Assembly: GCA_049511715.1 (NCBI GenBank)
Contig: JBEKXU010000003.1
Location: 36,408-100,407, forward strand
Source of the DNA: Anaerolineales bacterium
Lineage (GTDB): Bacteria; Chloroflexota; Anaerolineae; Anaerolineales; RBG-16-64-43
Direction: 5' to 3'
DNA length: 64,000 bases
In this document: positions 36,817 through 62,399 of the stretch, piece after piece
Numbering within the stretch: the stretch's first letter is position 1
How the letters are laid out: each line of letters opens with the position of its first letter
Program-made: the position numbers and the translations under genes
The notes under the pieces: generated by a model
What the model saw: only the letters and a program-made list of their open reading frames with translations
Told to the model about the DNA's origin: nothing
The model's database searches: none

Positions 36817-36904
36817 ATCCGCGGGACCCCGGCGGAGAGATTGCAGCGGCCCGCATGGGGCAGAAGAACATAATCTGGAGGCAAGGCCGTTCGGCCGCGA
36901 CAGG

Positions 36905-41837: not shown

Positions 41838-42290
41838 TCGTTTTCCCAATGGGACCCCGCGGGCTGTCCTACAACTCCTTGGTGGGCTTTCCATTTCCCT
41901 TCTCCTCCCCGAGTATTGTCTCCTCATGACCCTCCGGCCCGTCCGGCAGGCCCGCAGCGAGCCGAGGATCGTCACGACGGGCCGATGGCCATTCTGCGGC
42001 CGCTGACCTCGGCACCAGCTTCCTTCGTTTTCGGGAGGCGGGCAATTTGGTTGCTTAAGACTGATTCGCGGGTACACTGGGCTGGAGCCTCGTGAGTTTG
42101 CCTGCGGGACCGATGCCTTCCGGTGGGGTCATCCCCCCATGGCGGCTCGGCAGGCGGCGGTCAAAATATCGTCCGGCATTGGCGAAAACCTTTGGCAGGT
42201 TTGAGAGCGGAAAGGGTCACTCTGAGCGCCCGGCGTGGGGGATCCTCAATTTTGCCCATTCCTGCTCGGCAAAGGAGGCGAAGGAACCCC

Positions 42291-44703: not shown

Positions 44704-45304
44704 TCTCAGGCTCCGCATGAACTCCCGCGGCAGGCCTTTCCTTCGTTGTGGCGGACTTTGACCTCGGGCCAGGGGCCGAGCGACTGTTACTGCCCCTGGC
44801 TTTGTGGCCCCGATTAATTATATGAAGTGACTTCCAGTGAATGAGGGAAGTCGTCCTCTCGAATTGTCCCCTCTTGTGCTCGAACTGGACCAAATTCCTT
44901 GTAACACCCCACCAGGGGCCAAGCGACAGGTTGCGTAGCCTACCGGCTTGGGCGACACCGACCGATCCGATCCTGATACCTCGGCCGCTTGGCACCGGAA
45001 CCCCGGCCCTCGTCTTGCGCTCCAAACCGAGGTCCGCAGAGGCCTGGGTTCTGGAACCCACACGGATGATCTGGCATAGAATCACCATGAAGGCAAAGGC
45101 GATCCGGGGGAGGGGCCCGTGGCAGCGCCTCTTTCACGTTCTGTGGGCTCAGCCAGTGCATCGACGCGGCCCCCGTCGCTTTCTGGAATTGAGAGGTGTC
45201 GCGATCCCGCCTGCTCCCGGGAAAGGGTTTCTGGTCTCGGGAAGACCCGGCGATGGTTGTTGCCTGATCGCAGGGGTCAGGGCTTGACGTCGAAGGAGGC
45301 TGAC

Positions 45305-46378
45305 ATGGGCCCCGAGGAGGTTGCCAAGGGATCCGTTCCCCATCGTCGGTGGAACCCGCTGACAGGAGAGTGGGTTCTCGTCTCACCCCAACGCCTGAGC
45401 CGGCCGTGGCGCGGGCAAGTGGAGCCGGCTGAGGTCAAGGGAGGGCCGCCCTTCGATCCAGACTGCTACCTATGCCCAGGCAATCGCAGAACCAGCGGGA
45501 AGGTGAACCCAAGATATCGGTCAACCTACGTGTTTGAAAATGACTATCCCGCTTTGACCGGAGAGTCGAGTGACGGGGTGGAGGGACGGCCCCCTCTCTT
45601 CCTTGCCGAGTCAGAAACGGGAACTTGTCGCGTGATCTGCTACTCGCCCCGGCACGACCTATCGCTTGGAGAAATGAGCGAGGAGGAAATCGTGCCCGTG
45701 ATCGAGGTGTGGAAGCAGCAGATTGAGGAGCTTGGGCAGAGGCATCGATGGGTGCAGATCTTCGAGAACCGGGGTGAGATCATGGGCTGCTCTTGCCCTC
45801 ATCCCCATGGTCAGGTCTGGGCGGGATCGGTTCTGCCGAGCACGCCGGCCAAGGAGGACGAAGCCCAGCGAGACTACCTGGCCATTCACAGGACGTGCCT
45901 GTTGCTGGATTACGCTCGCCAAGAGTTAAAGGAGAAAGTCCGGACCGTGCTCGCCAGCAAGTATTGGATCGCCGTCGTCCCGTATTGGGCTGTCTGGCCC
46001 TTTGAACTTCTGCTTGTTCCCCTCCAGCCAAGGAGCAGCCTGGCGGACTTGACACGCGAGGAGGAACAATCCCTGGCGCAGGTGTTGAAGGGGGTATTAG
46101 TCCGTTACGACAATCTCTTTTTGTGCCCGTTCCCGTACACGATGGGCTGGCATGGCGGGCCTGGGACCGGGCAGGGTAGCCCGCACTGGCAGCTCCACCT
46201 GCACTTCTATCCGCCCCTGTTGAGATCGGCGACCGTCAGGAAATTCCTGGTGGGGTATGAGATGTTCGCCGAGCCCCAGCGGGACTTGACGCCGGAAGAT
46301 GCTGCCCAGACGCTGAGAGAGCTGCCGGATGTTCACTACAAGCTGGCTCCGGGGTCGAGCGGAGGAAAAACCGGGTGA
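45305..46378 (+). CDS. galT: Galactose-1-phosphate uridylyltransferase
   Basis: HRRWNPLTGEWVLVSP.R..RPW.GQ, CYLCPGN, FENRG.MGCS.PHPHGQ and RSATVRKF.VGYE. Confidence 0.95.
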   Translation: MGPEEVAKGSVPHRRWNPLTGEWVLVSPQRLSRPWRGQVEPAEVKGGPPFDPDCYLCPGNRRTSGKVNPRYRSTYVFENDYPALTGESSDGVEGRPPLFLAESETGTCRVICYSPRHDLSLGEMSEEEIVPVIEVWKQQIEELGQRHRWVQIFENRGEIMGCSCPHPHGQVWAGSVLPSTPAKEDEAQRDYLAIHRTCLLLDYARQELKEKVRTVLASKYWIAVVPYWAVWPFELLLVPLQPRSSLADLTREEEQSLAQVLKGVLVRYDNLFLCPFPYTMGWHGGPGTGQGSPHWQLHLHFYPPLLRSATVRKFLVGYEMFAEPQRDLTPEDAAQTLRELPDVHYKLAPGSSGGKTG

Positions 46379-46688: not shown

Positions 46689-46731
46689 TTGACATGCCCC
46701 CTGTGACCGCCCGAGGATGTTATCGTTATCA
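46689..46731 (+). promoter_or_regulatory. Putative LacI-family operator and -35 element upstream of the sugar cluster
   Basis: TTGACA at 46689 and the CG-centred near-palindrome TGTTATCGTTATCA at 46718-46731. Confidence 0.55.
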
Positions 46732-47114
46732 AAGTTGGCGTGCATAGGTTCAGGTAGGTGCCCAGCCATTCTTTTTGCAGTTCCCCCGTCGATCTCAAGA
46801 GCGGTCCCGCCACGACGTGAACTCCCCCAGAGGATGTCCGGAGGCGGGAGGAAGGAGGTGCCAGGAGGCTGTCCATGAAGGCGCCCGCCGGGTCTTGAGG
46901 CAGAAGGCGCTGGGCCGCGCATGTGAGGCGCTATCTTTCAGCCCCCCAGCAGTTGCCTAGGACCCCCCTCAGGTCTATGGGAAGGGGCTTCTTCTTGGAA
47001 AACCATCGCCAAGCGAATTCAGTTCCCAGCAGGTTGTAATTAGAATCGGCAGGGCTTGGCCGCGTTCGACTGCGGCCAGGCACGAGGCTGAATGAGAATC
47101 ACAAGGAGGAAAAG

Positions 47115-48170
47115 ATGCGTGCTCGGACCGTAAGGAATATGGGGACCATTGTCGGGGTTGTGGTCTTGTTGGCGATGGTCGTCTCCGCCTGCGCTCCGGC
47201 GGCGGCGCCAGCAGCGCCAGCGGCCACAGGCGTGTCCGCTGCGGCCAAGTCCACCCCAATGTGGTGCAAGGGCGTGAACATCGTGTTCTTCCCAGGCGGG
47301 CCTGAGGGAGGGGTTTTCGCAGTCAATGTCTACAACGGCGCCGTGCAGGCGGCGGCCGACCTGGGACCCACGGTTCAGTACGAATGGTCCAACTGGGATC
47401 CCGAGACGATGCTGTCGCAATTCCAAGCGGCGGCGGCAACCAAACCGGACGGGATCGCGGTAATGGGGCATCCTGGTGACACCTCCTTCGATCCGCTCAT
47501 CGACGCCGCAGAATCCAAGGGAATCATCGTCACCAGCCAGAACACCCCGCTGCCCACTGTGGAGGCGAAATACGCCTCGGCGGGTTTTGGTTACGTCGGT
47601 GCGGACCTCTATGCGGCTGGGCAGGCTTTGGGCAACAAAGCGGTCTCGTACTACAACCTCAAGGCCGGCGATCGCGCCATGGTCTGGGGGCTGCTGTCTC
47701 AACCGACCCGCGGGCTGCGCACTAAGGGCGTGATCGACGCGCTCAAGGCGGCCGGCCTGACGGTGGACTACATTGAGATCGACTCCGCGACCAACGCGGA
47801 TCCATCGGCGGGAACGTCTACCTTTGTGGCCTATGTCTCCGCGCACCCGGACGTCAAACTGGTGGTGACGGACCATGGCGGCTTGACCGCCACAGCGCAG
47901 ACCTACCTGTCAGCGGCCGGCAAGAAACCGGGCGATATTGATGTTGCAGGGTTCGACATGTCGCCGGCAACGGTCGCGGCCATCCAGGGCGGCTGGACGG
48001 GCCTGGTGATTGATCAGCAGGAGTGGCTGCAAGGCTACCTGCCGATCCTGCAAATCTGCCTCACCAAGGTCTACGGCTTCTCCGGCCTGTATATCGACAC
48101 CGGAGCGGGCTTCGTGGACAAGGATAATGTAGCTACAGATGCTCCTCTGGCGGCCCAGAATATTCGGTGA
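47115..48170 (+). CDS. Sugar ABC transporter substrate-binding lipoprotein (RbsB-like)
   Basis: VSAC lipobox, Ala/Pro linker, KPDGIAV, AGFD and IDQQ..LQGY. AAGGAGG RBS. Confidence 0.9.
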   Translation: MRARTVRNMGTIVGVVVLLAMVVSACAPAAAPAAPAATGVSAAAKSTPMWCKGVNIVFFPGGPEGGVFAVNVYNGAVQAAADLGPTVQYEWSNWDPETMLSQFQAAAATKPDGIAVMGHPGDTSFDPLIDAAESKGIIVTSQNTPLPTVEAKYASAGFGYVGADLYAAGQALGNKAVSYYNLKAGDRAMVWGLLSQPTRGLRTKGVIDALKAAGLTVDYIEIDSATNADPSAGTSTFVAYVSAHPDVKLVVTDHGGLTATAQTYLSAAGKKPGDIDVAGFDMSPATVAAIQGGWTGLVIDQQEWLQGYLPILQICLTKVYGFSGLYIDTGAGFVDKDNVATDAPLAAQNIR

Positions 48171-48179
48171 GAACGTGCG

Positions 48180-48221
48180 GAGACCTGACAGGTCGAGGAG
48201 ACCTGTCAGGTCTCTTTTTTT
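48180..48221 (+). terminator. Intrinsic terminator or stabilising hairpin after the SBP gene
   Basis: GAGACCTGACAGGTC-GAGGA-GACCTGTCAGGTCTC followed by T7. Confidence 0.75.
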
Positions 48222-48242
48222 AGAGGGTACGGAGGCAGTCGG

Positions 48243-49025
48243 ATGAACCCGGCGGCGGTTGTTCAGATGAAAGGAATCTCCAAGACCTTTGGAGAGGTGG
48301 CCGCACTGCGGAACGTGAACTTTGAGGTGGGCCCGAATGAGATCGTGGGGCTCCTGGGGGACAATGGCGCGGGCAAATCGACCCTGGTCAAGATCCTGAC
48401 AGGGTATTACCAGCCGGACCCGGGCGGGGAGATCTACTTGAAAGGAACGAAAATTGACCGCCTCTCTGTGGCCAAGGCCCGCGACCTGGGCATCGAGGTG
48501 GTGTATCAGGAAAGAGCCCTTTCGGAGCTGCATTCCTTGTGGCGGAACATTTTCATGGGCCGCGAGCTGGCCAACCGCTGGGGTGTGCTCGACCTGAAGG
48601 CAATGAAGTCGGAAACCCAGAGGCTGATGATGACCGCCATGGGTTTCACCTCGGCGGCCGTGACCCCTGATTCGGTAGTGGGCGCATTCTCCGGTGGCGA
48701 GCGCCAGGGCGTGGCGATCACACGCGCGCTCTATTTCCACGCCGAACTGATCATCCTCGACGAACCCACCATGGGGCTGTCTTTGTCCGAAACGCGCAAA
48801 TGCACTGACTTCGTGCGGGGCATCAAGCAGGCGGGGAAGGCAGCCATCTTCATCGATCACAACATCTTCCATGTTCACCCCATTGCCGACCGCATCGTGG
48901 TCCTGGACCGGGGAGCGGTGGCCGGGGAGTTCAAGAAGGACGAGCTGACGCTCGACCAGCTCATTAGCCGGCTTGAAATGGTCGCCCAAACCGGAAGCCT
49001 CGAAAACCACAATTCCGTTGCCTGA
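48243..49025 (+). CDS. Sugar ABC transporter ATP-binding protein (single NBD)
   Basis: GDNGAGKST, VYQE, FSGGERQ and LDEPT. Confidence 0.92.
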   Translation: MNPAAVVQMKGISKTFGEVAALRNVNFEVGPNEIVGLLGDNGAGKSTLVKILTGYYQPDPGGEIYLKGTKIDRLSVAKARDLGIEVVYQERALSELHSLWRNIFMGRELANRWGVLDLKAMKSETQRLMMTAMGFTSAAVTPDSVVGAFSGGERQGVAITRALYFHAELIILDEPTMGLSLSETRKCTDFVRGIKQAGKAAIFIDHNIFHVHPIADRIVVLDRGAVAGEFKKDELTLDQLISRLEMVAQTGSLENHNSVA

Positions 49026-49044
49026 GAAATAGAGAGCAGGTGCC

Positions 49045-50073
49045 ATGAATTCAGCCGCGGAAGCGAGTCCCATATCTCCCGTCGCGTCGAGCTCCAGGAT
49101 CGGCCGGACCCTTCGAAAGTACGCCCTGCAGATCGCGATCGTGCTGGTCTTGGTGGTTATCTGGGCGTTCTTCTACTGGCGGTCTCCCAGGACCTTTGGG
49201 CACTACGACATCTATAACGCCCTGATGGTGACCACCCCATACTATGCCCTGATGGCGATTCCTCTAACCCTGGTGATCATCGCCAAGGAAATTGACCTGT
49301 CCTTTTGTTCCATCATGGCCTGGGGCATGGCCGCTTACGACTTGGTCTTCTTGGCACTTAACCGGACCAATCCCATCCTCGCGGTCTACCTGGGCTTTGT
49401 GGCCTGCCTTGTGGCGGGGCTCGTGGCCGGCTATCTGAACGGGTGGATCGTGGTGCACCTGGGAATCCCCTCGCTGGTGGCGACGCTGGGAACCCAGTAC
49501 TTCTGGCGGGGGGCGGTGCTGGTGGTGACCAACGGCGAGGGGCTCGGCATGACCGTGGTTCAGTCGACGGTGCTGTACCCTGTTCTGGACGGCTACTTGT
49601 TCGGCAAGATCCCGGTGGATTTCGTTTGGATGATCTTGTTCGCCGTGGCCACCTGGTGGTTCCTGAACCGCCATAAGTTTGGAGCCCATGTCTACCTGAC
49701 CGGCGACAACACGGAAAGCGCCAACCTGATGGGGGTGGACACGGGCCGAACAAAGATCCTGGCCTTCACCCTCGTGGGAGTGATCTCGGCCTTTGCCGGC
49801 TTCGTCGTCAGCGCGGGGCTCCTTTTCCTGTGGCCAACGCTCGGCGAGGGGTACCTGCTGAACACGCTGGCCTCGGTGTTCCTGGGCGGCACGTCGGTCT
49901 TCGGCGGGACCGGAACCATTTTTGGGACTTTCGTGGGCTCCTTCATCATTGCGATTATCGACCCCGGCATCGTTGCCGCCGGCTGGACGGCCTACTGGAC
50001 CCAATTCATCTACGGTGCCATCATCGTGGTTTCGGTGGCGCTGCAGGCTGTGCTGCAGAGGAGGCTGGCCTAG
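49045..50073 (+). CDS. Sugar ABC transporter permease (RbsC-like)
   Basis: EIDLS, IPSLVATLGT, GDN.ESA.L.GV and LGGTS..GG.G. Confidence 0.92.
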   Translation: MNSAAEASPISPVASSSRIGRTLRKYALQIAIVLVLVVIWAFFYWRSPRTFGHYDIYNALMVTTPYYALMAIPLTLVIIAKEIDLSFCSIMAWGMAAYDLVFLALNRTNPILAVYLGFVACLVAGLVAGYLNGWIVVHLGIPSLVATLGTQYFWRGAVLVVTNGEGLGMTVVQSTVLYPVLDGYLFGKIPVDFVWMILFAVATWWFLNRHKFGAHVYLTGDNTESANLMGVDTGRTKILAFTLVGVISAFAGFVVSAGLLFLWPTLGEGYLLNTLASVFLGGTSVFGGTGTIFGTFVGSFIIAIIDPGIVAAGWTAYWTQFIYGAIIVVSVALQAVLQRRLA

Positions 50074-50176
50074 GCGACACTGGGGAATCCAGGAAAGTGT
50101 GCCGGTCAACATCGCGCAATCATCCCGCATGCTCTAGACCGCAATTCCCGCGCCGGAGCCCGGAGGCCGAAGGCCG

Positions 50177-51400
50177 ATGAACTCGCGCGAACGTGTTTGG
50201 CTGGCCCTCAACCACCGGGAACCCGACCGAGTGCCCATTGACCTGGGGGCGACGATCGTCTCCTCGATCGTGCGCCCAACCTATATCGCCCTCAAGAAGT
50301 ACCTGAATATGCCTCTGGAAGAGATTCGCATGCTGGACTATGTCCAGCAGCTGCCCTATGTCGACGAGGCTTTTCTGGAACGCTTTGCGGTGGACTTTCG
50401 GCTCGTCCAGCTTCCGGCCGCCACCGCTCCCGGGGTGGAAATCTTCGAGGAGGGGAACTACTTCGCCTTCATTGACCGCTGGGGTTCGAAACTCCACATG
50501 CCCAAGGAGGGTGGGCTTTACTTCGACTGGGTGGATTTCCCCATCCGGGCCCCCACCCTGGAGGCTCTGGACCGCTACTCGTGGCCGCGGCCTGACCCGG
50601 AGACCTACCTCACCCAGCTGCGCGACCAGGCCCGGTCCCTTTCCGAAAAAACGGATTTTGCCCTGGTCGGGAGTGCCATCATTGGGGGAGGCATCTTTGA
50701 GCAGCCAGCCCGAACCATGGGTTTGCAAAATTTCTTTGAGGCACTGGTCACAGAACCGAAATTTGCGGACCGGCTGATGGAGGGGATCACGGACCTGTAT
50801 GTCGAGTCCTGCGATCGCTATCTGGAACAGGTGGGGCCCTACCTGCAGGTCTTCACGTACTGGGACGATCTGTGCGGACAGAACGGCTGGCTCATTCGGC
50901 CCGACTTGTACCGCACGATGATCAAGCCCAAGCAACGACGGCTGGTGGAGGCGATCAAGCGGAAGACGGAGGCCAAACTCTTCTACCACAGCTGCGGTGC
51001 CAGCCGCGAACTGATCCCCGACCTGATCGAACTGGGATTTGACATCCTCAATCCCGTCCAGGTATCCGCCCGCGGGATGAACACGAAAACGCTGAAGGCG
51101 GAATTCGGGAAGGATATTGTCTTTTGGGGCGGCGGCGTGGACACCCAGGGGGTCTTGCCGTTTGGGACGCCTGAGCAGGTGGCCGACGAGGTCAGGCGCC
51201 GCATCGACGACCTGGCTCCCGGAGGGGGATTTGTCTTTGCCGCGGTCCACAACATTCAGGCTTTTGTCCCTCCTGAGAACATCGTGGCGGCCTTTGACAC
51301 CGCGCGATCCTACGGTCGCTACAGGACCTCGGGGTTCCAGGAAGGGGGGGGCGCATCATCGGGAAAGGGGCTGGCGGCTCGCCAGGGAGGTTCGGCGTGA
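50177..51400 (+). CDS. URO-D/MtaA-fold protein, copy 1
   Basis: RERV..AL.H.EPDRVP, DRWG, WDDLCGQ, FYHSCG, LNPVQ, FWGGGVDTQ and VHNIQ. Confidence 0.85.
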   Translation: MNSRERVWLALNHREPDRVPIDLGATIVSSIVRPTYIALKKYLNMPLEEIRMLDYVQQLPYVDEAFLERFAVDFRLVQLPAATAPGVEIFEEGNYFAFIDRWGSKLHMPKEGGLYFDWVDFPIRAPTLEALDRYSWPRPDPETYLTQLRDQARSLSEKTDFALVGSAIIGGGIFEQPARTMGLQNFFEALVTEPKFADRLMEGITDLYVESCDRYLEQVGPYLQVFTYWDDLCGQNGWLIRPDLYRTMIKPKQRRLVEAIKRKTEAKLFYHSCGASRELIPDLIELGFDILNPVQVSARGMNTKTLKAEFGKDIVFWGGGVDTQGVLPFGTPEQVADEVRRRIDDLAPGGGFVFAAVHNIQAFVPPENIVAAFDTARSYGRYRTSGFQEGGGASSGKGLAARQGGSA

Positions 51401-52512
51401 AGCACCGGGATCGGGTCCTGGCGGCGCTCAGCCACGAGATCCCGGATCGCTGCCCGATGCAGATCAGTTTCACGCCCGAGTTCGCCGCGCGGCTCGAAAC
51501 GGACCTGCGGGCCCGGGGGAGCGGCAGTCACAACCCGCACGGGGGCGGCAACACCTATGAGCTGGAGCGGGCCCTCGATGAGGATATGCTCCTCTCCTCG
51601 GTGGGCTGGGTGAATTCCTACTACCAGCCCGGCTATGAGCACTGCGATTCGTACCTGGACGAGTGGGGAGTACGCTGGAAAACGGTCGAATATGCGACCC
51701 GCTTTGGGACGGGAAGGTACACGGAACCCGCGGGTCATCCTCTAGCGGAGGACACCGCCATCCAAGGCTATCGGCCGCCGGATCCGATCCGTCCGGCGCT
51801 GTATGCCGATTTCTCGCGGGTGGTGCGGGAATTGTCCCAGGAATATTGGATCGTGGGCGTCGTCGTGACCACGGTTTTCGAGTGCGCGTGGGCGCTGCGC
51901 GGCTATGAGCAGCTGTTGATGGATTTCCTGCTCAATCCGGAACTGGCGGAGCAAGTCCTGGATTTTCCTTTTCGTTATCACCAGGAGGTCGCGCGGCGAC
52001 TGGTGGAACTGGGCGCGGATATGATCTGGCTGGGAGATGACGTAGGATCCCAATCCTCCATGCTCCTGTCGCCGCAGCTCTGGCGCAGGTTTCTCAAACC
52101 GCGCCTGGCAGCCATCATTGCGACCCTGAAGGCGGTCAACCCGCAACTCAAGGTCGCCTACCACTCGGACGGCTGGATCGAGCCCGTCATTCCGGAGTTG
52201 ATTGAAATCGGAGTGGACGTCCTGAACCCAGTCCAGCCGGCCGTCCTGGATCTGGAGGGGTTGGCCCGGCGATACGGGACGCGCCTGTGCTTCTGGGGGT
52301 CGATCGATATTCAGCGGACCCTGCCGTTTGGAAGCCCCTCCGACGTGGCGAATGAGGTGCGGGCACGCCTGCGGACGCTCGGGCGGCACGGCGGTCTGGT
52401 GATTGGACCGACCCACAATGTTCAGCTTGATACTCCCCTGGAAAACTTCTGGGCGATGGTCAACACGATTGTCCAAACGCCCTATTCCTCCCTTTCCCTG
52501 GGGGACACCTAG
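51397..52512 (+). CDS. URO-D/MtaA-fold protein, copy 2
   Basis: RDRV..AL.HE.PDRCP, DEWG, GDDVG.Q, YHSDG, LNPVQP, FWGSIDIQ and PTHNVQ. Confidence 0.85.
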   Translation: MKHRDRVLAALSHEIPDRCPMQISFTPEFAARLETDLRARGSGSHNPHGGGNTYELERALDEDMLLSSVGWVNSYYQPGYEHCDSYLDEWGVRWKTVEYATRFGTGRYTEPAGHPLAEDTAIQGYRPPDPIRPALYADFSRVVRELSQEYWIVGVVVTTVFECAWALRGYEQLLMDFLLNPELAEQVLDFPFRYHQEVARRLVELGADMIWLGDDVGSQSSMLLSPQLWRRFLKPRLAAIIATLKAVNPQLKVAYHSDGWIEPVIPELIEIGVDVLNPVQPAVLDLEGLARRYGTRLCFWGSIDIQRTLPFGSPSDVANEVRARLRTLGRHGGLVIGPTHNVQLDTPLENFWAMVNTIVQTPYSSLSLGDT

Positions 52513-52577
52513 CCAGGCGATTCGACCGGCCCCCGCGCGCAAACCGGCTGCGGGAACCGAGGAGGAGAATGCGACGT

Positions 52578-53624
52578 ATGGATCGCGCGGGAGAGCGAAG
52601 GCATGTGACCCTGCGGCAGGTGGCCAGTCAGGCGCGCGTGTCGGCTCAGACCGTCTCGCGGGTGATCAACAACGTTCCGGCCGTCGCCCCCGGAACGCGA
52701 CTCCGTGTGCAGCAGGTGGTTTCGGAACTGGGCTACCAGCCGAATGTGCTGGCGCGGAGTCTGGTGCATCGTCGCAGCTACACCCTGGGGGTGGTCGCGA
52801 CGGGGCTGGAGTATTTTGGCCCTGCAGGCACCCTAGTCGGGATCGAGCGCCAGGCCAGCGAGCTGGGTTACTCGATCCTGCTCCATCTTCTCCCGCAGCC
52901 CCAGCTGGACAATGCAGAGCCGGCGCTCAACAGCCTGCTCTCCCGTCAGGTGGATGGGATCATTTGGGCGGTGCCGGAGATCGGCTCGAACCGCAACTGG
53001 CTCCGGAGGGAAAGTCCGCATCTCCCCGTCCCGATCGTGTTTCTGAGCATGCACGCCTCCAGCAGTCTGCCCGTTGTCTCTGTGGACAACTTTGAGGGCG
53101 GGCGGCTGGCCACGGATCACCTGCTCTCTCAGGGGTACCGGCATATCGGCCTGATCACCGGGCCGCTGACTTGGTGGGAGGCGCGTGAGCGCAGGCGGGG
53201 ATGGCGGGACTCCCTTCTGGCGGCAGGGCTGCAGGCGGATGAGCGCCAGGTCTTTGAGGGCGATTGGACTGCCTCCAGCGGCGAGCAGGGGTTCTCCTCC
53301 CTGGCCGAGCGGTTTTCTGAAATGGATGCCGTATTCGCCGGGAACGACCAAATGGCCCTGGGCGTCTTGCAAGCCGCGCATCACCGCAGCCTGCGGGTTC
53401 CCGCCGACCTGGGCGTTGTGGGCTTTGATGACATCCCGGAGTGCGCGTATTTCTGGCCGCCGCTGACGACCGTCCGGCAGGAACTGCGCCAACTGGGAGG
53501 GATGGCCGTGCATCACATCGCTGAGATGATCCGCGCCAGCCGCGGAGAGTCGGCTGCACCGGAGGAGAACACGCTCTGGGTGGCCCCGATGCTGGTCGTG
53601 CGCTTCAGTTCGACCAAAGTCTAG
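52578..53624 (+). CDS. LacI-family transcriptional regulator
   Basis: TLRQVA..A.VS.QTVSRVIN HTH, YQPN.LAR, NDQMALG, VGFDD and LTTVRQ. Alternative start 52569. Confidence 0.93.
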   Translation: MDRAGERRHVTLRQVASQARVSAQTVSRVINNVPAVAPGTRLRVQQVVSELGYQPNVLARSLVHRRSYTLGVVATGLEYFGPAGTLVGIERQASELGYSILLHLLPQPQLDNAEPALNSLLSRQVDGIIWAVPEIGSNRNWLRRESPHLPVPIVFLSMHASSSLPVVSVDNFEGGRLATDHLLSQGYRHIGLITGPLTWWEARERRRGWRDSLLAAGLQADERQVFEGDWTASSGEQGFSSLAERFSEMDAVFAGNDQMALGVLQAAHHRSLRVPADLGVVGFDDIPECAYFWPPLTTVRQELRQLGGMAVHHIAEMIRASRGESAAPEENTLWVAPMLVVRFSSTKV

Positions 53625-53685
53625 CCCGTGCCCCCTTGGAGCCTTGGTAGCCTGCGAGGTCCCGAAGACCCATGGGAGGTCATGC

Positions 53686-54705
53686 ATGACCAAACGGGAC
53701 GTGGTGAAGCAGGTTTTCCTGGGGGAGCGGCCGCTCTACGTGCCCTGGTCGTTCGGATTCACGTACGAGGCCAAAGTCAAGCTTCAGGAGCATTTCGGGA
53801 CGAGCGATCTCGAGCCGGCCCTTCAGAATCATCTGCTCAAGCTGGGGAGCGATATTGGTTTCTTCACAGAGCTCGGGGCGAACTGTGTCCAGGATGTGTT
53901 TGGGGTCGTTTGGGACCGCAGCGTAGACCGGGACATCGGGATTGTGAAGGGCTGCCGCCTGCCTGAGCCGACCCTGCGGGGGTACGATTTCCCCAACCCC
54001 CTGGACGCGCGCTTTTTCGCCGACATTCCCGATCGCATCCGCCGCTACGGCGACCGGTTCCGGGTCTTCCAAATTGGGTTCTCCCTGTATGAGCGGGCCT
54101 GGACCCTGCGCGGCCTCACCAATTTGCTCATGGACTTCTACGATCATCCCGAGTTTGTGCGCGAGCTCCTGAGCCGCATTGCGGACTACAACATCGCCCA
54201 GATCCGCGAGGCCCTGAAGTACGACATTGATGCGGTGTACTTCGGGGATGATTGGGGGCAGCAGCGCGGACTGCAGATGGGACCCGTCCTATGGCGCGAG
54301 TTCATCCGGCCGGTGCTGGCGCGAATGTACGCCGTCGTCCGTGAGGCAGGCCGATTCGTGATGATCCACTCCTGCGGAGATGTCGACGAGTTGTTCGACG
54401 ACCTGATCGAAATCGGTGTCAACTGCTTCAACCCGTTCCAGCCGGAGGTCATGGACGTCACTTCGCTCCTTTCCCGGTACCGGGGACGCTGGGCCTTTCA
54501 CGGAGGGCTGTCCACCCAAAGGACCCTGGCCTACGGAACGCCAGAGGAGGTGCGCCGCGAATCTCGGCGGCTGATCGAACTCGGCCGCCCGGGGAGCTAT
54601 ATCTTTGCGCCGGCGCACGACGTCGAAGGCGATGTCCCCCTCGCGAACATGCTTGCCTTCATCGAGGTGGCCCTTGGCCAAGAGGGATATTCGCCTTCTG
54701 CTTGA
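53686..54705 (+). CDS. URO-D/MtaA-fold protein, copy 3
   Basis: DVFG, LYERAW.LRG, GDDWGQQ, IHSCG, FNPFQPE, GGLSTQ and PAHDV. Confidence 0.85.
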   Translation: MTKRDVVKQVFLGERPLYVPWSFGFTYEAKVKLQEHFGTSDLEPALQNHLLKLGSDIGFFTELGANCVQDVFGVVWDRSVDRDIGIVKGCRLPEPTLRGYDFPNPLDARFFADIPDRIRRYGDRFRVFQIGFSLYERAWTLRGLTNLLMDFYDHPEFVRELLSRIADYNIAQIREALKYDIDAVYFGDDWGQQRGLQMGPVLWREFIRPVLARMYAVVREAGRFVMIHSCGDVDELFDDLIEIGVNCFNPFQPEVMDVTSLLSRYRGRWAFHGGLSTQRTLAYGTPEEVRRESRRLIELGRPGSYIFAPAHDVEGDVPLANMLAFIEVALGQEGYSPSA

Positions 54706-54747
54706 GCCGTCCAGGTCCCATTCGTCTGCGGCCTTGGGGGGAAAGAT

Positions 54748-55668
54748 GTGATTAGCCAAACCGCACGTCTCAACCGGCTCTTCGGGCAGGACGGGAAATG
54801 TCTGGTGGTCGCCCTCGATCACGGGTCGACCGGGGAGCCTCGCGCTTACCAAGGGTTGGAGAATCTGGGGGCCGCGGTCCGAGTGGTGGCGCAATCGCTT
54901 CCGGACGCGATCCTCTTGGGTCCGGGGCAGGCGCATTGGTTGCAGGAATTTCCCGGGCGATCCAAACCCTCGCTGCTTGTGCGCGCCGATGTGACCAGCC
55001 TCTACTCGCGCCCCGGTCCTGATCCCCTCTTCTGCAACCTCCTGGAGGGGGCCCTGGAGCAGGCGGTGCGCGCGGACGCCGTTGGTGTGGTCGCCAATCT
55101 CTTGGATCTCCCTGACCCGGCCGGGATCCGGGAACAGTGCCTGAGAAACCTCAGTCTGCTGCGTGCCTGTTGTGAGCGCTATGGGATGCCTCTCATGGTG
55201 GAAACGCGACACATGCGTCGCTCGCGTCGCTCGGGGATGTGCGAACCCAGCGGCGAAGTCGGGCATCTCGGTTCGCTTGTGCGCCAGGCCGTGGAACTGG
55301 GAGCGGACCTGATCAAGAGCGACCGCACGGGGAATCCGCAAGAGGTCGACTGCCTCGTGGAGGCCGCCTCAGGCAAGCCGTTGCTGATCCTGGGCGGGGC
55401 CGTGATGGAGGAGAAGGACATGGTCCGCCAGACGCAGGCCGTCCTCCAGCGAGGCATCTCCGGCCTGGTGTATGGACGGAACGTCTTCTCCGCGCCGGAT
55501 CCGGCCCGCAGGGTTCGCATCCTGATGGCCCTCTTGCATGAGGGCGGTTTGCCGCGGGACGTGGGGGACCCCGGGCTGGGCCAGGACCCGGGCGGCCGAG
55601 ATTCCGGGAAGCAAGAGGGGATTTCGCGGCGCGGCGGTCGCGGCCCAACCGGGAGAGGCGGCCGCTGA
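54748..55668 (+). CDS. Class I (DhnA/LsrF-type) aldolase
   Basis: VVALDHG, ELGADLIK (Schiff-base Lys), ILGG and YGRNVF. Confidence 0.8.
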   Translation: MISQTARLNRLFGQDGKCLVVALDHGSTGEPRAYQGLENLGAAVRVVAQSLPDAILLGPGQAHWLQEFPGRSKPSLLVRADVTSLYSRPGPDPLFCNLLEGALEQAVRADAVGVVANLLDLPDPAGIREQCLRNLSLLRACCERYGMPLMVETRHMRRSRRSGMCEPSGEVGHLGSLVRQAVELGADLIKSDRTGNPQEVDCLVEAASGKPLLILGGAVMEEKDMVRQTQAVLQRGISGLVYGRNVFSAPDPARRVRILMALLHEGGLPRDVGDPGLGQDPGGRDSGKQEGISRRGGRGPTGRGGR

Positions 55669-55754
55669 GGTCGCGCCCGGCATGCTCCGGAGGGCATCCG
55701 CGCCCGCGGTTGGATGAAGGAAGCTGCTGCCGGAGAAGCGCCAGGACCGCTGGG

Positions 55755-57260
55755 ATGAGTTTCCTGGGAATCGATGTCGGCACGACCGGGCTGAAGGCGG
55801 CGGTCATCTCGGACCGGGGAAGAATCCTGGCTTCGGCTTACGAGGAGTGCGCACTTCATCAACCGGAGCCGGGCTGGGCTGAGCTTGACGCGGAGGCGGC
55901 CTGGGGGCAGATCCGGCGCTTGATCCTTCGTACCGTCTCCCAGGCCAAGCGCGATCCGGTCAAAGCTTTGGCGGTGTCGTCCTTGGGCGAGGCCATGGTC
56001 CTCGTGGGCCCCCAAGGGGAAGCCCTTGCCCCATCCATCCTCAACTCGGATGTGCGCGGCGCAGAATACTTGGAGAGAGGAAAGCGTCCGATTGGGGACT
56101 CCCGCCTCTACGCCCTCAATGGCAACACCTTGGGGAACCAGTACGGCCTGACCAAGCTGCTCTGGATCCGGGACCACCGGCGATCAATCTTCGATCGGAC
56201 CGAGAAATTCCTCCCATGGGGGAGCTACGTGGCCTGGAAGTTGGGCGCCGAGCCAGTGGTGGACTATTCGCTGGCCAACCGAACTTTGCTCTTCGATCTT
56301 GAGCGGGAGACTTGGTCGGTGGAGCTGATGAGCCGGGCGGGCTTGGACCCGTCAAAGTTCCCCGAGCCGAGACGTTGCACAGAGGCCGTGGGAACCGTGC
56401 CCGTCGGCCTGGCGGCCGAGCTCGGGCTGCCGGAGGGGGTGCGGATCATTAACGGGGCCCACGATCAGTGTGCGAGCGCGGTTGGATGCGGCGTCCTGGA
56501 GGAGGGGCAGGCCGCCTGCGGGATGGGCACCTATACCTGCGTGACGCCGGTTTTCCGGAGGCGACCTCCGGCCGCCAGCATGATCCGCCGAGGGCTAAAC
56601 ACCGAGCATCATGCCGCGCCGGGAAGGTATGTCTGCTTCATCTTCAACCAGGGAGGCGCCTGGGTCCGATGGTTCCGCGGAGCATTCGCCCAGGCGGAGT
56701 GGCAGGCGGCCCGAGAGACAGGGGAGGACGTGTACTCACGATTGTTTGCCGAAATGCCGGAGGGCCCGAGTTCGGTGCAGTTTGTTCCCCACTTGACTCC
56801 GAGCAAGGTGATCAAGGCATTCTCGCCCCCTGCCCAGGGAGTCCTGGCCGGAGTCGAGCCGGGGACACCCCGGGGTGAGATCCTGAAGGGGATCATCGAG
56901 GGGGTCACCCTTGACCTGCGTCGGCGCCTGGAGTCGGTCGACACCGCCGGAATTCGGGTGGGCGAGCTGAGGGCCTCTGGAGGCGGCAGCCGCTCCGACC
57001 TGTGGCTCCAACTGTGCGCGGACCTCCTGGAACGGCCGGTGCTTCGCACGCAGGTGGCGGAGGCTGGGGTGCTGGGAGCGGCCATCATCGCTGGCGTGGG
57101 TTATGGGGTGTTTCCCAGCCTGGAAGCGGGAGCCTCACAAATGGTGGGCGCGGAGCGCCTTTTTGAACCTCGGCGCAGCGCCCGAACGGAATACGCCGCC
57201 CGCTATCAGAAGTTCCTGGAATTGAGCGCAGGATGTCGGGGATGGGCGGGAGAGAACTGA
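55755..57260 (+). CDS. FGGY-family carbohydrate kinase (xylulokinase-like)
   Basis: LGIDVGTTGLK, GAHDQ, MGT, SGGGSRS..W.Q..AD and LGAAI.AG. Confidence 0.88.
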   Translation: MSFLGIDVGTTGLKAAVISDRGRILASAYEECALHQPEPGWAELDAEAAWGQIRRLILRTVSQAKRDPVKALAVSSLGEAMVLVGPQGEALAPSILNSDVRGAEYLERGKRPIGDSRLYALNGNTLGNQYGLTKLLWIRDHRRSIFDRTEKFLPWGSYVAWKLGAEPVVDYSLANRTLLFDLERETWSVELMSRAGLDPSKFPEPRRCTEAVGTVPVGLAAELGLPEGVRIINGAHDQCASAVGCGVLEEGQAACGMGTYTCVTPVFRRRPPAASMIRRGLNTEHHAAPGRYVCFIFNQGGAWVRWFRGAFAQAEWQAARETGEDVYSRLFAEMPEGPSSVQFVPHLTPSKVIKAFSPPAQGVLAGVEPGTPRGEILKGIIEGVTLDLRRRLESVDTAGIRVGELRASGGGSRSDLWLQLCADLLERPVLRTQVAEAGVLGAAIIAGVGYGVFPSLEAGASQMVGAERLFEPRRSARTEYAARYQKFLELSAGCRGWAGEN

Positions 57261-57302
57261 CCGAAGCATTGCGCCGCTTCCCGGCCGGCTGAGGAGGCTA
57301 CG

Positions 57303-58754
57303 ATGGTCACGGACATCACGCTCGGCGTCATTGTCGGAAACCGCGGCTTTTTCCCCGATCACCTTTGCGATACGGGGCGGAAGACGATGTTGGGGATCCT
57401 GGCGGAGGAGCACGTGAAGGTGATCGCCCTCGGGCCGGAAGACACGAAGTTCGGCAGCGTGGAGACCCTCTCCGATGCCCACCGATGTGCGGAGCTCTTT
57501 CAGCAGCACCGCCGCGAGATCGCTGGGGTGCTGGTCACGCTTCCCAATTTCGGCGATGAGCGAGCCGTGGCCAACACCCTGCGCTGGGCCGGCCTCGATG
57601 TGCCGGTCCTCATTCATGCCTTCCCCGATGACCCTGAGCGGATGACCGAGAACGACCGCCGTGATTCCTTCTGCGGCAAGATCTCGGTCTGCAATAACCT
57701 GGCGCAGTACGGCATCCGCTATACGCTGACCCGCCTCCACACCATGAGCCCGGAAAGCGACGAATTCCGTGCGGACCTGGAGCGCTTTGCCAGCGTTTGC
57801 CGCGTGGCGCGAGGGCTACCAGGCAGCCGGATCGGCGCTGTCGGGACTCGACCGGCCGCCTTCAATACGGTCCGCTTCAGCGAGAAGCTGCTGGAACGGG
57901 CCGGGGTCACGATTGAACCCTTGGACCTTTCCGAGGTCTTAGGGCGCGCTGCGCGACTTGGGGAGGGAGACGCCAAGGTGAGGTCCAAGCTGGCCGACCT
58001 CAAAGCTTATGTCCCCGCCCAGGGCACGCCGCCCGAGTCCCTGGTGCGCATGGCCAAGCTGGGAGTGGTTATCGATGAATGGGCGAGCGCGAATGATCTG
58101 GTCGCCACCGCCATCCAATGTTGGACTTCCCTGGTGGAGTTCTACGGGGTGGTGCCCTGTGCTCTGATGAGCATGATGAGCAGCCGGCTCATGCCCTCCG
58201 CGTGCGAAACGGACGTTACCGGGGTCGTCGGCATGTACGCACTGGCCTTGGCTTCCGGGAAACCCAGCGCCATCGTGGACTGGAACAACAACTACCGCGG
58301 GGATCCCGACCGGGCGGTAATCTTCCACTGCTCCAACCTTCCGCGGGAAATGTTCATGACGGAAAGCGCCTCGGCCTCCGAGGCTCCGGCGATGGGCTAC
58401 CAGAACATCCTGGCCGGGACGGTCGGGAAGGAAAACAGCTTCGGCACGGTAGTGGGGAGATTGCGTCCCTCCCCGTTTACGTTTTGCCGGGTGTCGACCG
58501 ACGAGATGAATGGGCGGATCCTGGCCTACGTGGGTGAAGGGGCCTTGACGAATGACCCGCTGAAAACGTTCGGCGCCTATGGAGTGGTTCAGATCCCGCG
58601 CCTGCAGAAGTTGCTGCGGTACATCTGTGAGAACGGCTTCGAACACCATGTAGCGATCAACCTGTCGCGCAGTGCTTCGGCCGTTGAGGAGGCCCTGTCC
58701 AAGTACCTGGGGTGGGAGGTCTACAACCATACCGCGGCTGATCAGGGGATGTAA
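57303..58754 (+). CDS. L-fucose/L-arabinose isomerase family protein
   Basis: NFGDE, RRDSFCG, IQCW, ACETD, FHCSN and GFEHH. Confidence 0.85.
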   Translation: MVTDITLGVIVGNRGFFPDHLCDTGRKTMLGILAEEHVKVIALGPEDTKFGSVETLSDAHRCAELFQQHRREIAGVLVTLPNFGDERAVANTLRWAGLDVPVLIHAFPDDPERMTENDRRDSFCGKISVCNNLAQYGIRYTLTRLHTMSPESDEFRADLERFASVCRVARGLPGSRIGAVGTRPAAFNTVRFSEKLLERAGVTIEPLDLSEVLGRAARLGEGDAKVRSKLADLKAYVPAQGTPPESLVRMAKLGVVIDEWASANDLVATAIQCWTSLVEFYGVVPCALMSMMSSRLMPSACETDVTGVVGMYALALASGKPSAIVDWNNNYRGDPDRAVIFHCSNLPREMFMTESASASEAPAMGYQNILAGTVGKENSFGTVVGRLRPSPFTFCRVSTDEMNGRILAYVGEGALTNDPLKTFGAYGVVQIPRLQKLLRYICENGFEHHVAINLSRSASAVEEALSKYLGWEVYNHTAADQGM

Positions 58755-58757
58755 ACC

Positions 58758-59849
58758 ATGGACGAATTCCAAACCAAGCAGCAGCGGATTCTCCGCCTGC
58801 TTCAGGAGCGAGGCCTGGGAGCTTTGCATTTGCGCCGGGCCGGCAGCTTTGCCTGGGCGACCTGCGGGGCTAGCTCGCAGGTCAACCAGGCCTCCAGCTT
58901 CGGCGAGGCCTCGCTGCTGGTCACACCCCAGGCGCGTGTCGTGATCTGTAACAACATTGAGGCCCCGCGCTTGGTCGACGAGGAGGGGCTGGAAGCCCAG
59001 GGTTGGGAGATGCGTGTCACTCCCTGGCATGAAGACCGGGACGCGCTCCGGGCCCTTCTTCCGACCGGGCCATTCGGAGCAGACGAGTCCGAAGAGGGGG
59101 CAGTGGATCTGTCCGTGGAGGTCGCGCACCTCCGGGCGGAGCTCACGCCTCCGGAGGAACAGCGCTTCCGGGAGCTGGGCAAGCTCTGTGCGCAGGCAAT
59201 CTCCGCCGCTGCTCGAGGGGTCCGGCCCGGCCAGAGCGAGCTGGAAATTGCGGCCGGACTTTCGCGCGAGTGCGAGAATCGGGGAGTGCAAGCGACTGTC
59301 AACCTGGTCGCCAGCGATGAGCGCGTCTACCGATACCGGCATCCCCTCCCAACGGCCAAGACCCTCGAGCGGTACGCCATGCTGGTGGTCTGCGGACGAA
59401 AAGCGGGCCTGATTTGCTCCGTGACCCGCTTGGTCCACTTTGGGAAGCTGCCGGCCGAACTGGCACGGAGGCAGGAGGCCATCGCGCGGGTCGATGCCCA
59501 ATGGATCCGGGCGACCCGTCCGGGACGGGCGCTGGGCGACGTCTTCCGCGAGGGCGTAGCCGCCTATGGCGAGGTGGGCTTCCCGGAGGAATGGCGCCGC
59601 CATCACCAGGGAGGGCCGGCGGGCTACGAGCCGCGGGAGTGGCTGGCCCGGCCCGATTCCCCCGAGATCATCCGCGCCGGGCAGGCCTTTGCATGGAATC
59701 CATCCATTGAAGGAATCAAGATGGAAGACACTCAACTGGTCGGCCAGGGGGAACCTGAGATTCTGACCACCCTCACCGACTGGCCCACTATTCAGGTGGC
59801 GCTGGACGGAGGCACCCTCCCGCGCCCGGCGATCCTGGAAATAACCTAG
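58758..59849 (+). CDS. M24 (Xaa-Pro/creatinase fold) protein lacking the canonical metal ligands
   Basis: Creatinase-like N-domain, YRHP, SVTR, HHQGG, WNPS and KMEDT. Confidence 0.75.
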
Positions 59850-59907
59850 GGCGAGGGGCGCGGACAAAACCCGGTCGCCTTTCGCGGAATCATGGCCGGA
59901 GGACGAG

Positions 59908-61608
59908 ATGAGTAGACGAAAGTACACCGTCGGGGTTGATTTTGGGACTGAGTCGGGGCGGGCGGTCCTGGTCGAGGTAGGCAGTGGGCGGGAGATTGCC
60001 AGTTCGGTCTACGTGTATCGAAACGCCGTGATCGACGAATCCCTTCCGCTTCCCGGGCGGCCGGTCCGGCTGGAGCCGGATTGGGCGCTGCAGGACCCGG
60101 AAGACTACTTGAGAACGTTTCAGCGTGCGGTCCCGGCACTGCTGCGCCAGACCGGGGTGGAACCGGATGATGTCGTCGGCGTGGGGATCGATTTCACGGC
60201 CTGCACCATGCTGCCGACGAGGGCGGACGGGACCCCGCTGTGCCTGGTCCCCGAGTTCCGGCGCAACCCGCATGCCTGGGTGAAACTGTGGAAGCACCAT
60301 GCCGCACAGCCGGAGGCGGACAAGATCAATGCCACCGCCCGGGCTCTGGGAGAACCTTGGCTCTCGCGTTACGGGGGCAAGATCTCCTCGGAATGGTTTT
60401 TCGCCAAGGCGCTGCAGATCTTGGAGGAGGCTCCCGAGATCTATTCGGCGGCGGATCGGCTGATCGAGGCCGCGGACTGGGTGGTCTGGCAGCTTTGCGG
60501 GGTGGAGACCCGCAACTCCTGCACCGCAGGCTACAAGGCCATGTGGTCGAAGCGGGACGGGTTCCCGGGGGAGCGGTATTTTGCGGAGCTGGATTCTCGC
60601 CTGGCCAACATCGTAGACGCCAAGATGTCGCGACGGATCACCCCTCTGGGCCAGCGGGCCGGAAACCTCACCCCTCAGGCCAGTCGCTGGACGGGGCTGA
60701 GAGCGGGCACGGCAGTAGCCGTGGCCAACGTTGACGCTCATGTGTCCGTTCCCGCTGCCACGGTGACCGGACCGGGACGCATGGTGATGATTATGGGGAC
60801 CAGCATTTGCCACATGGTCCTGGGGCCGGAGGAACGGGCCGTCGAGGGGATGTGCGGCGTGGTGGAAGACGGAATCATCCCCGGGCTTTTTGGTTATGAG
60901 GCCGGTCAGTCGGGGGTGGGCGACATCTTTGCCTGGTTTGTTGAGTCGGCCGTCCCGCCCGAATATCACGCTGCGGCCCGGCGGGCTGGGCGGGACTTGC
61001 ACCGCCAGTTGGAGAGGGAGGCCGCGACGCTCCGGCCTGGGGAGTCGGGGCTGCTCGCCCTGGACTGGTGGAACGGCAACCGCTCGGTGCTGGTCGACGC
61101 CGATCTCAGCGGGATGCTTCTGGGGGCAACCCTGTCGACCAAGGCACCCGAAATCTACCGGGCGCTCATCGAAGCCACGGCCTACGGAACCCGCATGATC
61201 ATCGAAGCCTTCGAGCGAAACGGCGTCCGCGTGGATGAGTTGGTCGCCTGTGGCGGGCTGCCGGAGAAGAACCTGTTGCTCATGCAGATCTTTGCCGATG
61301 TGACCGGGAAAGAGATCAAGGTCACGGCCTCGCGCCAGGCCCCGGCGCTGGGGTCGGCCATGTTCGCGGCGGTCGCTGCGGGCCGGACAGCGGGCGGGTA
61401 TGATTCGATTGTGGAAGCCGCGGAGCGCATGCCACGGCTGAAGAAGAGGGCCTTTGTCCCGGCGGCTCTGAACCAGCGCCTCTACAGGCAGTTGTATCAG
61501 GAGTACACCGTGCTGCACGACTACTTCGGCCGGGGACAGAATGACGTGATGAAGCGGCTGAAAGCGATGCGACAGGAGATGCGAAGCGGGGAACTGCACG
61601 AGGCGTAG
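59908..61608 (+). CDS. araB: L-ribulokinase
   Basis: [42 protein letters not shown] and DWWNGNRS. Confidence 0.93.
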
Positions 61609-61754
61609 GCGCACCTGAAGTGCGCCCCGGAGTCAGGCGCCCTGACAGGGAAACGCTCCCATCAGCGAACCGTCTGGCCGGGCCAAGGGGCTGGCGGGCC
61701 TCCGGGATTGGAGAGCACGAGAGCGCGCGGGCGGAACCTGCAGGAGGATCTGGC

Positions 61755-62399
61755 GTGCTTGAGGACCTGAAACGAGTTGTCTGGCAGATGAACCTGGAGT
61801 TGCCGAGGAACGGGCTGGTGGTTTGGACCAGCGGGAACGTAAGTGGCCGCGACGAGGGCACCGGCTTGGTGGTCATCAAACCGAGTGGAGTGCGCTACGA
61901 GACCCTCACGGAGGACAAGATGGTTGTCGTCGACTTGCAGGGCAAAGTCGTGGAGGGAACCCTCAAGCCGTCGTCCGATGTGTTCGCCCACGTCTACGTC
62001 TACCGCCATCGGCCTGATGTGGGCGGCGTGGTCCACACCCACTCGACGTTCGCCACAGCCTTCGCGGCCCTTGGCCGGCCCATCCCGCCGAGCCTCACAG
62101 CGATATGCGATGAGTTCGGGGGGGCCATCCCCTGCGGCGGGTACGCTCGAGTGGGCGGGGACGAGATCGGCCAGGAAATCGTGGCCAACATCGGGAGCAG
62201 CCCGGCAATTCTGTTGAAGAACCACGGGGTGTTCACCCTCGGGCGCAACCCGGAGGAGGCGGTAAAGGCCGCGGTCATGGTTGAGGATGCTGCGCGCACC
62301 ATGTATTTTGCCTCGTTGCTCGGCCAGCCCGAGGAGATCAGCCCCGAGGAAGTCCAGCGCGCTCACCTGCGCTACCTGCGCGACTACGGGCAGGGCTGA
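61755..62399 (+). CDS. araD: L-ribulose-5-phosphate 4-epimerase (class II aldolase fold)
   Basis: WTSGNVS, IKPSG, KPSSD, VVHTHS, NHG and C-terminal YGQ. AGGAGG RBS before GTG 61755. Confidence 0.88.
   Translation: MLEDLKRVVWQMNLELPRNGLVVWTSGNVSGRDEGTGLVVIKPSGVRYETLTEDKMVVVDLQGKVVEGTLKPSSDVFAHVYVYRHRPDVGGVVHTHSTFATAFAALGRPIPPSLTAICDEFGGAIPCGGYARVGGDEIGQEIVANIGSSPAILLKNHGVFTLGRNPEEAVKAAVMVEDAARTMYFASLLGQPEEISPEEVQRAHLRYLRDYGQG

Follow-up and report, generated by a model that had tools for sequence, protein, structure and literature searches.

The locus described here raises the question of why three enzymes of a kind that databases name uroporphyrinogen decarboxylase (7,917 matches among 8,000 candidates scored) are encoded amid genes for sugar import and pentose metabolism. 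It lies in a 64,000-nt stretch of DNA from an Anaerolineales bacterium (hereafter the window; source genome G000, 3.2 Mb, 96% complete, with the congeners G001 and G002), in which 13 genes (47115-62399) form an operon encoding an ABC importer, three URO-D/MtaA-fold proteins (U1, U2 and U3), a regulator and a set of sugar enzymes. In relatives the genes of U1-U3 stand beside that of a B12 carrier protein, which makes it likely that these enzymes remove methyl groups from sugars without oxygen. We consider it fairly probable, from sequence comparisons, that U1-U3 perform the corrinoid-dependent O-demethylation of O-methyl sugars or cyclitols, with transfer of the methyl group to tetrahydrofolate (THF). 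The corrinoid dependence of U1-U3 appears highly probable, and, once this is granted, a carbohydrate is the likely O-methyl donor. The presumed substrates, O-methyl sugars, are stable ethers of plant and algal glycans.

Active site of the URO-D/MtaA-fold proteins

The genes of U1 (50177-51400), U2 (51397-52512) and U3 (53686-54705), all on the + strand, encode proteins matching the URO-D family of Pfam with E-values of 6e-23, 5e-28 and 1e-24, respectively. The three proteins share 27-31% pairwise identity and fall into three separate, well-supported clades of a tree; their nearest named homologues are from Anaerolineales. U1 contains the motifs WDD and HSCG, U2 the motifs GDD and HSDG, and U3 the motifs GDD and HSCG, each together with a distal His. 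U1 is predicted to be a substrate:corrinoid methyltransferase.

The AlphaFold model of U3 (pLDDT 94.5) has as its top Foldseek match MtaA (PDB 4ay8; TM-score 0.76, 16% identity). MtaA was also the first match of a profile built from 43 sequences, in which its HICG motif aligns with HSCG and its third ligand, a Cys, with His. In the 43-sequence alignment every sequence has His311, and each of Asp188, Asp189 and His228 is conserved in at least 90% of them (U3 numbering from 53686). The two motif positions were also compared in 134 URO-D open reading frames (ORFs) of the related loci, by which we mean the 80 best U3 loci, of 586 confirmed, whose neighbourhoods were mapped: 102 of them have HxCG and 24 have HxDG as their first motif (8 unmatched), and the distal position is occupied by His in 117 and by Cys in none (17 unmatched). 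We infer that U1-U3 contain a metal site of the form His-x-Cys/Asp...His. Among methyltransferases of the UroD family, those acting on sulfur have a His-Cys-Cys site and those acting on oxygen have lost one or both Cys (PMC10418091), and the O-demethylases MtvB, OdmB, VdmB and MtoB belong to the UroD superfamily, some members of which are without zinc (PMC13222342).

Assignment of U1-U3 to the MtaA/CmuA-type coenzyme M methyltransferases was rejected: with the corresponding NCBIfam models (TIGR01463, NF004889 and NF040654) they score 46-70 bits vs cut-offs of 235-400, and the His-Cys-Cys site is absent.

A conserved cluster in related genomes

The recurring gene order in Anaerolineae is: LacI-family regulator, solute-binding protein (SBP), ATPase, permease, U1, U2, U3, corrinoid protein, and a glycyl radical activator and enzyme; the cluster often continues with araA, M24, zinc dehydrogenase, araB and araD genes, and its order differs among relatives. 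Orthologues of U1 and U2 are encoded in 21 and 26 of the 80 related loci, respectively. The 26 loci with both U2 and U3 include 22 with a corrinoid protein, 18 with the glycyl radical enzyme, 17 with the SBP and eight with araA, and in most related clusters the corrinoid gene is placed immediately 3′ of U3. The four U2+U3 loci without it are a 3-kb contig, L012 (which has the gene order of the window), L020 and L032. Genes for a THF methyltransferase and for RACo are each found inside a single locus of the 80.

Two parts of the conserved cluster, the corrinoid protein and the glycyl radical enzyme, are invisible from the window, since both are detached in the genus: they are absent from the operon in G000, G001 and G002. 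U1-U3 are nevertheless kept at 85-90% identity in the two congeners, whose operons also have no corrinoid gene.

Loci without U2 include those of Planctomycetota, Verrucomicrobiota and other phyla. A Pfam family could be assigned to 32 of 67 direct neighbours of U3 in these loci, and 16 of the 32 are sugar-type transporters or carbohydrate enzymes; carbohydrate neighbours of U3 include GH43, GH29 and a glucuronoyl esterase.

The glycyl radical enzyme, present in 19 of the 80 U3 loci, is a protein of ~700 aa with an ACWE loop, encoded together with its activator (e.g. L063:11048-13162; in G000, contig C5:12140-15246, L101, of which 13153-15246 is the enzyme). It scores below the cut-off of every named glycyl radical enzyme, and its best PDB match is PflD of E. 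coli, a sugar-phosphate C-O isomerase. The enzyme and activator on contig C5 stand alone and are 68% and 66% identical, respectively, to the cluster copies; the detached enzyme has been retained at 68-69% identity in G000, G001 and G002. A metagenome scan with this enzyme recovered the same cluster, and the 80 loci obtained (many of them short, three near-identical) contain a corrinoid gene in 17 cases, URO-D genes in 19 and a sugar-type ABC ATPase in 22. In 15 of the 26 clusters the permease and U1 genes are separated by a transglutaminase-like gene of opposite orientation (e.g. L063:4953-5984), which is absent from the window.

Corrinoid proteins, activators and one-carbon genes of the genome

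Inspection of the whole G000 genome revealed six B12-binding matches, three RACo and five pterin-binding matches, as well as genes of the Wood-Ljungdahl pathway (CODH, acetyl-CoA synthase, CFeSP gamma subunit and Fhs). One corrinoid protein gene (contig C5:40157-40783) adjoins a gene for a THF methyltransferase (C5:41352-42212). Its product is the closest in the genome to the in-cluster corrinoid proteins, such as that of L063:9622-10269 (58-64% identity, vs 45-50% for the copy on contig C4). The possibility that it is their strict orthologue was rejected, because it falls outside their clade in two quick trees (support 99-100); its role is for the same reason only inferred, and we regard it as a plausible partner of U1-U3. 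The surrounding region (C5:24599-42212; L102, L103) also encodes a LacI-type regulator, an oligopeptide-type ABC system, two GH94 phosphorylases and a GH5 enzyme. An aminotransferase gene between the corrinoid and methyltransferase genes of this region is intact in G001 and G002 and seemingly a remnant in G000. On another contig (C31:35739-40369; L106) a RACo gene and genes for a corrinoid protein, a THF methyltransferase and a divergent URO-D protein form a compact group that looks like a classical demethylase system.

RACo is encoded elsewhere in each of the 22 genomes whose cluster includes a corrinoid gene, and 21 of these genomes have a match to the C5 THF methyltransferase. Outside this set such a match was found in 19 of 28 genomes and was weaker, hence the methyl acceptor may differ there. 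RACo is encoded in 47 and a corrinoid protein in 45 of 50 genomes that have no corrinoid gene at the U3 locus (representing 50 of the 58 such loci). In a sample of 150 genomes from the planctomycete class of genome G062 RACo is present in 4/4 genomes with the enzyme family vs 2/146 without it, and in 60 relatives in 20/20 vs 25/40; none of the RACo-negative genomes (0/144 and 0/15, respectively) carries the enzyme family, counts that describe patterns and are not test statistics, because kin are not independent.

The sugar half of the operon

The importer genes encode (i) an SBP of the monosaccharide-type CUT2 class (47115-48170; PF13407), (ii) an ABC ATPase (48243-49025) and (iii) an ABC permease (49045-50073), all on the + strand and the latter two likewise recognized by Pfam. 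The best fold match of the SBP is 4ru1 (TM-score 0.80, 29% identity), whose ligand is presumably myo-inositol, and its best NCBIfam match is the rhizopine SBP model (86 bits vs a cut-off of 420). The ara genes suggest a pentose as a candidate substrate, and these weak matches are the one hint of a cyclitol.

The remaining genes, also on the + strand, encode (i) a DhnA/LacD-type class I aldolase (54748-55668; Pfam DeoC/LacD), (ii) an FGGY kinase closest to xylulokinase (55755-57260), (iii) an L-fucose-isomerase-family protein (57303-58754; Pfam C-terminal domain of L-fucose isomerase), (iv) an M24-fold protein (58758-59849; Pfam M24), (v) L-ribulokinase AraB (59908-61608) and (vi) L-ribulose-5-phosphate 4-epimerase AraD (61755-62399; class II aldolase of Pfam). 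The identities already proposed for AraB and AraD are confirmed by NF003154 (760 bits vs 428) and NF005123 (320 bits vs 251). Classification of the FGGY kinase as XylB was rejected (TIGR01312, 251 bits vs 380).

The aldolase and the second FGGY kinase are genus-specific at this position of the operon: apart from the window, they were found there in G001, G002 and L012 alone (1/80 related loci), in the slot that in other clusters is held by the corrinoid and glycyl radical genes. Eleven farther aldolase homologues of Chloroflexota (43-46% identity) were retrieved, and none of the six regions mapped contains URO-D or ara genes.

In 6 of 14 regions from Chloroflexota the fucose-isomerase-like gene (loci: window 57303-58754 and L237-L245) accompanies araB-araD where neither araA nor URO-D genes are present. 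The araA gene was not found in any of the four other genomes whose cluster carries the fucose-isomerase-like gene, and was found in the control genome G074; judged from this gene content, the protein probably supplies the isomerase step of the L-ribulose block, as a non-orthologous substitute for AraA forming L-ribulose. It has no sequence match in the PDB, and G000 also encodes a lone true AraA (C6:82667-84217). Since the ara block is also found in regions that lack URO-D genes, its presence is no proof of a pentose substrate.

The M24-fold protein, which travels with araA, araB and araD, has kept one (the last Glu) of the five dimetal ligands (Asp, Asp, His, Glu, Glu) in an alignment to 5giu. 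Cys, Ser, Gly and Asn have taken the place of the lost ligands and hardly vary among 15 close homologues, the window protein counted among them. Having kept a single ligand of the five, the protein is not a standard peptidase. A metal-less M24-fold subfamily tied to sugar catabolism is also seen at C11:18851-24345 of G000 (L099), where a split transketolase and a ribokinase-like gene lie between two farther copies, next to a sugar ABC system and the gene of an FGGY kinase.

Organization and regulation of the operon

The initial annotation of the window, made from its letters and predicted ORFs, had described 13 co-oriented, mostly closely spaced genes with an internal LacI regulator and an upstream LacI-type operator, and had noted no heme or methanogenesis genes nearby. 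This description agrees with our results: the coordinates match, all 13 ORFs lie on the + strand with intergenic gaps of -4 to 103 bp, Pfam returned the named family for every one of them, and none of the 31 upstream ORFs scanned is a heme or methanogenesis gene. The probable true starts of the U3, FGGY kinase and AraD genes are 53686, 55755 and 61755, respectively. The 13 genes are intact and in identical order in G000, G001 and G002.

The LacI-family regulator (Pfam) is encoded at 52569-53624 (+ strand). Upstream of the operon, a TTGACA promoter-like box (46689-46694, + strand) is followed by a LacI-type palindrome, TGTTATCGTTATCA (46718-46731, + strand), the putative operator; both are kept in G001 and G002. 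A pattern derived from the TGTTATCGTTATCA site itself (0.03 exact matches expected by chance) has this single match in the 3.2-Mb genome at up to one mismatch, and none near the C5 corrinoid gene, the C5 glycyl radical genes or araA on C6. A strong hairpin of 16 pairs followed by a T run (48179-48215, + strand), terminator-like or mRNA-stabilizing, is located 3′ of the SBP gene and is a caveat on co-transcription of the operon. The leader (46730-47114, 385 bases) contains blocks conserved in the three genomes, e.g. GCGGGAGGAAGGAGGTGCC, and has no Rfam match. No Rfam element, cobalamin riboswitch included, reached the gathering score in the window or in three partner loci. A plasmid search gave weak, partial matches only.

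Proposed function and alternative explanations

In the proposed mechanism, LacI would leave the operator when substrate is present, and the SBP/ABC system would import O-methyl carbohydrates. The ether oxygen would be bound at the His-x-Cys/Asp...His metal site, and the Co(I) of the corrinoid would accept the methyl group; given their divergence, U1-U3 would probably cover different sugars or ring positions. From the C5 corrinoid protein the methyl group would pass through the methyltransferase encoded at C5:41352-42212 to THF and into the Wood-Ljungdahl pathway, with RACo re-reducing the cobalt. The bare sugar would then enter pentose metabolism, the isomerase, AraB and AraD (in this genus also the extra kinase and aldolase) processing the demethylated sugars. 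We are evenly divided on the broader proposal that a widespread, unstudied URO-D subfamily with the His-x-Cys/Asp...His site consists of B12-dependent carbohydrate O-demethylases and provides the anaerobic route so far missing for O-methyl sugars and cyclitols, feeding the methyl group to the Wood-Ljungdahl pathway and the sugar to fermentation, and coupled in Anaerolineae to a new sugar-acting ACWE-loop glycyl radical enzyme.

Anaerobic O-demethylation of methylated sugars by MtaA-like enzymes was the leading hypothesis of the initial annotation, which also called for a neighbourhood analysis of the URO-D proteins and a genome search for corrinoid proteins and activators. Both were run: the first placed these proteins with a sugar importer and a corrinoid protein in a conserved Anaerolineae cluster (corrinoid gene in 22/26 orthologous clusters), and the second found the partners in the genome. 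The O-demethylation part of the hypothesis is substantially strengthened by these results, and its single linear pathway through six extra enzymes is not supported, as the aldolase and second kinase occur in 1/80 loci and the ara block without URO-D genes in 6/14.

Several observations weigh against sugar O-demethylation. The operon itself encodes neither a corrinoid protein nor RACo nor a THF methyltransferase; the C5 corrinoid protein stands outside the in-cluster clade, and it and its neighbouring methyltransferase gene have no operator match at up to one mismatch; and RACo is common in Anaerolineales regardless (46/61). The fold does not separate MtaA from UroD, which tie in a wider structural search with the U3 model (both Z 27.8), so that it does not by itself decide between the two. 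In known O-demethylases the swap described is for a carboxylate rather than for His, and zinc is dispensable in some methyltransferases of the UroD family (PMC13222342). The SBP is at most 29% identical to solved proteins, and its ligand therefore cannot be read; the isomerase-araB-araD block, moreover, exists elsewhere without URO-D genes (6/14 loci).

The strongest alternative, which we nevertheless consider unlikely, is that U1-U3 are corrinoid methyltransferases with non-carbohydrate donors (N- or S-methyl solutes, methanol), or include one that passes the methyl group to a non-folate acceptor, the sugar genes being merely co-regulated. It would account for the near absence of THF methyltransferase genes from the loci (1/80) and for the mobility of the ara block, and the type 1 mlp clusters, which contain three enzymes of this kind, act on methyl-Se/S compounds (PMC10418091). 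The lack of the His-Cys-Cys site, the CUT2 sugar importer encoded alongside (SBP in 17/26 U2+U3 loci) and the carbohydrate-gene neighbours in other phyla argue against it.

Slightly less probable still is a metal-dependent chemistry of U1-U3 that needs no cobalamin, in which they would be hydrolases, decarboxylases or isomerases of sugar acids or branched sugars and the corrinoid gene would serve another role. The absence of the enzyme family from all RACo-negative genomes (0/144 and 0/15) and the corrinoid gene directly 3′ of U3 in most clusters argue against this explanation; the conservation of U1-U3 (85-90% identity) in a genus whose three operons have no such gene is in its favour, and the structural tie with UroD permits decarboxylase chemistry.

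It is improbable that the operon is a mosaic, made by fusion of an ordinary arabinose-type block with a methyl-transfer block whose carrier was lost in the genus and which is no longer a working unit. The corrinoid protein and glycyl radical enzyme are indeed missing from the operon in G000, G001 and G002, gene order is variable among relatives and a terminator-like hairpin follows the SBP gene; against this stand the 13 intact genes in the same order in three genomes, the conserved promoter and operator, and the retention of the glycyl radical enzyme elsewhere in all three (68-69% identity). Finally, that U1-U3 are true uroporphyrinogen decarboxylases (HemE), the outcome that the initial annotation had named in advance as fatal to its hypothesis, is suggested by database names and the shared fold and is highly improbable, as U2 and U3 score 19-23 bits with TIGR01464 vs a cut-off of 303 and U1 gives no match, RQAGR, the N-terminal catalytic motif of HemE, is absent from all seven URO-D proteins of the genome, and no heme gene lies among the 31 upstream ORFs scanned.

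Comparison with known systems

The predicted sugar O-demethylases are most readily compared with the aryl O-demethylase systems (MtvB, OdmB, VdmB, MtoB; PMC13222342, PMC10418091), with which they share a methyltransferase I of the UroD superfamily, the loss of His-Cys-Cys and a corrinoid carrier, as well as RACo and THF methyltransferase in the genome. Of the components of a corrinoid O-demethylase, the UroD-fold methyltransferase I is encoded in the operon, and the corrinoid protein, methyltransferase II and activator elsewhere in the genome. The known substrates are methoxylated aromatics, whereas the operon described here encodes ketopentose kinases together with an ABC importer for sugars, and its methyltransferase II and activator lie outside the cluster.

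Type 1 mlp clusters (Kountz and Balskus, PMC10418091) resemble the cluster in having three divergent MtaA-like proteins, a corrinoid protein and no in-cluster THF methyltransferase. They are characterized by His-Cys-Cys, an in-cluster RACE gene, a sulfur/selenium context and a mostly Firmicutes distribution, unlike the operon and its relatives, in which the third ligand is His, RACo is not part of the cluster and the surrounding genes are those of sugar catabolism. The operon has three MtaA-like proteins where at least two are expected, with a U3-MtaA identity of 16% (structural alignment) vs the threshold of >25% to a coenzyme M methyltransferase given in that paper. Membership in this type was rejected, the corrinoid protein and the Ram/RACE gene both being outside the window and RACo in 1/80 related loci.

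MtaA itself (PDB 4ay7/4ay8) is the top Foldseek and profile hidden Markov model match and shares the HxC motif; it differs in sequence (16% identity, at most 70 bits vs 235-400) and in the third Cys, replaced here by His, and the present host is not a methanogen. The L-arabinose pathway (AraA-AraB-AraD) is represented by AraB and AraD, both above family cut-offs; the operon departs from it in having an isomerase related to L-fucose isomerase and a metal-site-less M24-fold protein that travels with the block.

The P450 demethylation of 6-O-methyl-D-galactose in marine Flavobacteriia (PMC10033563) likewise removes a methyl ether so that the sugar can be used. That route is oxidative and releases formaldehyde, whereas the proposed system would be anaerobic and save the methyl group on cobalt and folate. 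It was the sole route of sugar O-methyl removal found in the literature searched. Corrinoid- or B12-dependent demethylation of methylated sugars or pinitol was not found there (most subscription journals lay outside the search); the term 'demethyl' does not occur in the available text of PMC12282258, nor 'methoxy' or 'methanol' in that of a glycyl radical review (PMC13450708), and a lead on Bacteroides genes had no match in the main text of PMC3243724.

The operon is a real, conserved system, and what is new is the predicted class of its substrates. If the prediction is true, a B12 route would explain the use of O-methyl sugars in anoxic communities and link sugar fermentation with acetogenic one-carbon metabolism, and thousands of proteins now named uroporphyrinogen decarboxylase would gain a function. 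The conserved cluster names all parts for a direct assay, the uncharacterized glycyl radical enzyme being a second target.

Neighbouring genes

In all three congeneric genomes galT (window 45119-46378) is located directly 5′ of the operon, preceded by an ORF for a 491-aa protein (42123-43598) without a Pfam match. Farther upstream, the window contains an ordinary kdpABC-kdpDE potassium uptake operon (32902-41008) and, 26 kb 5′ of the operon, CbiMQO-type cobalt/nickel uptake genes (18332-21408).

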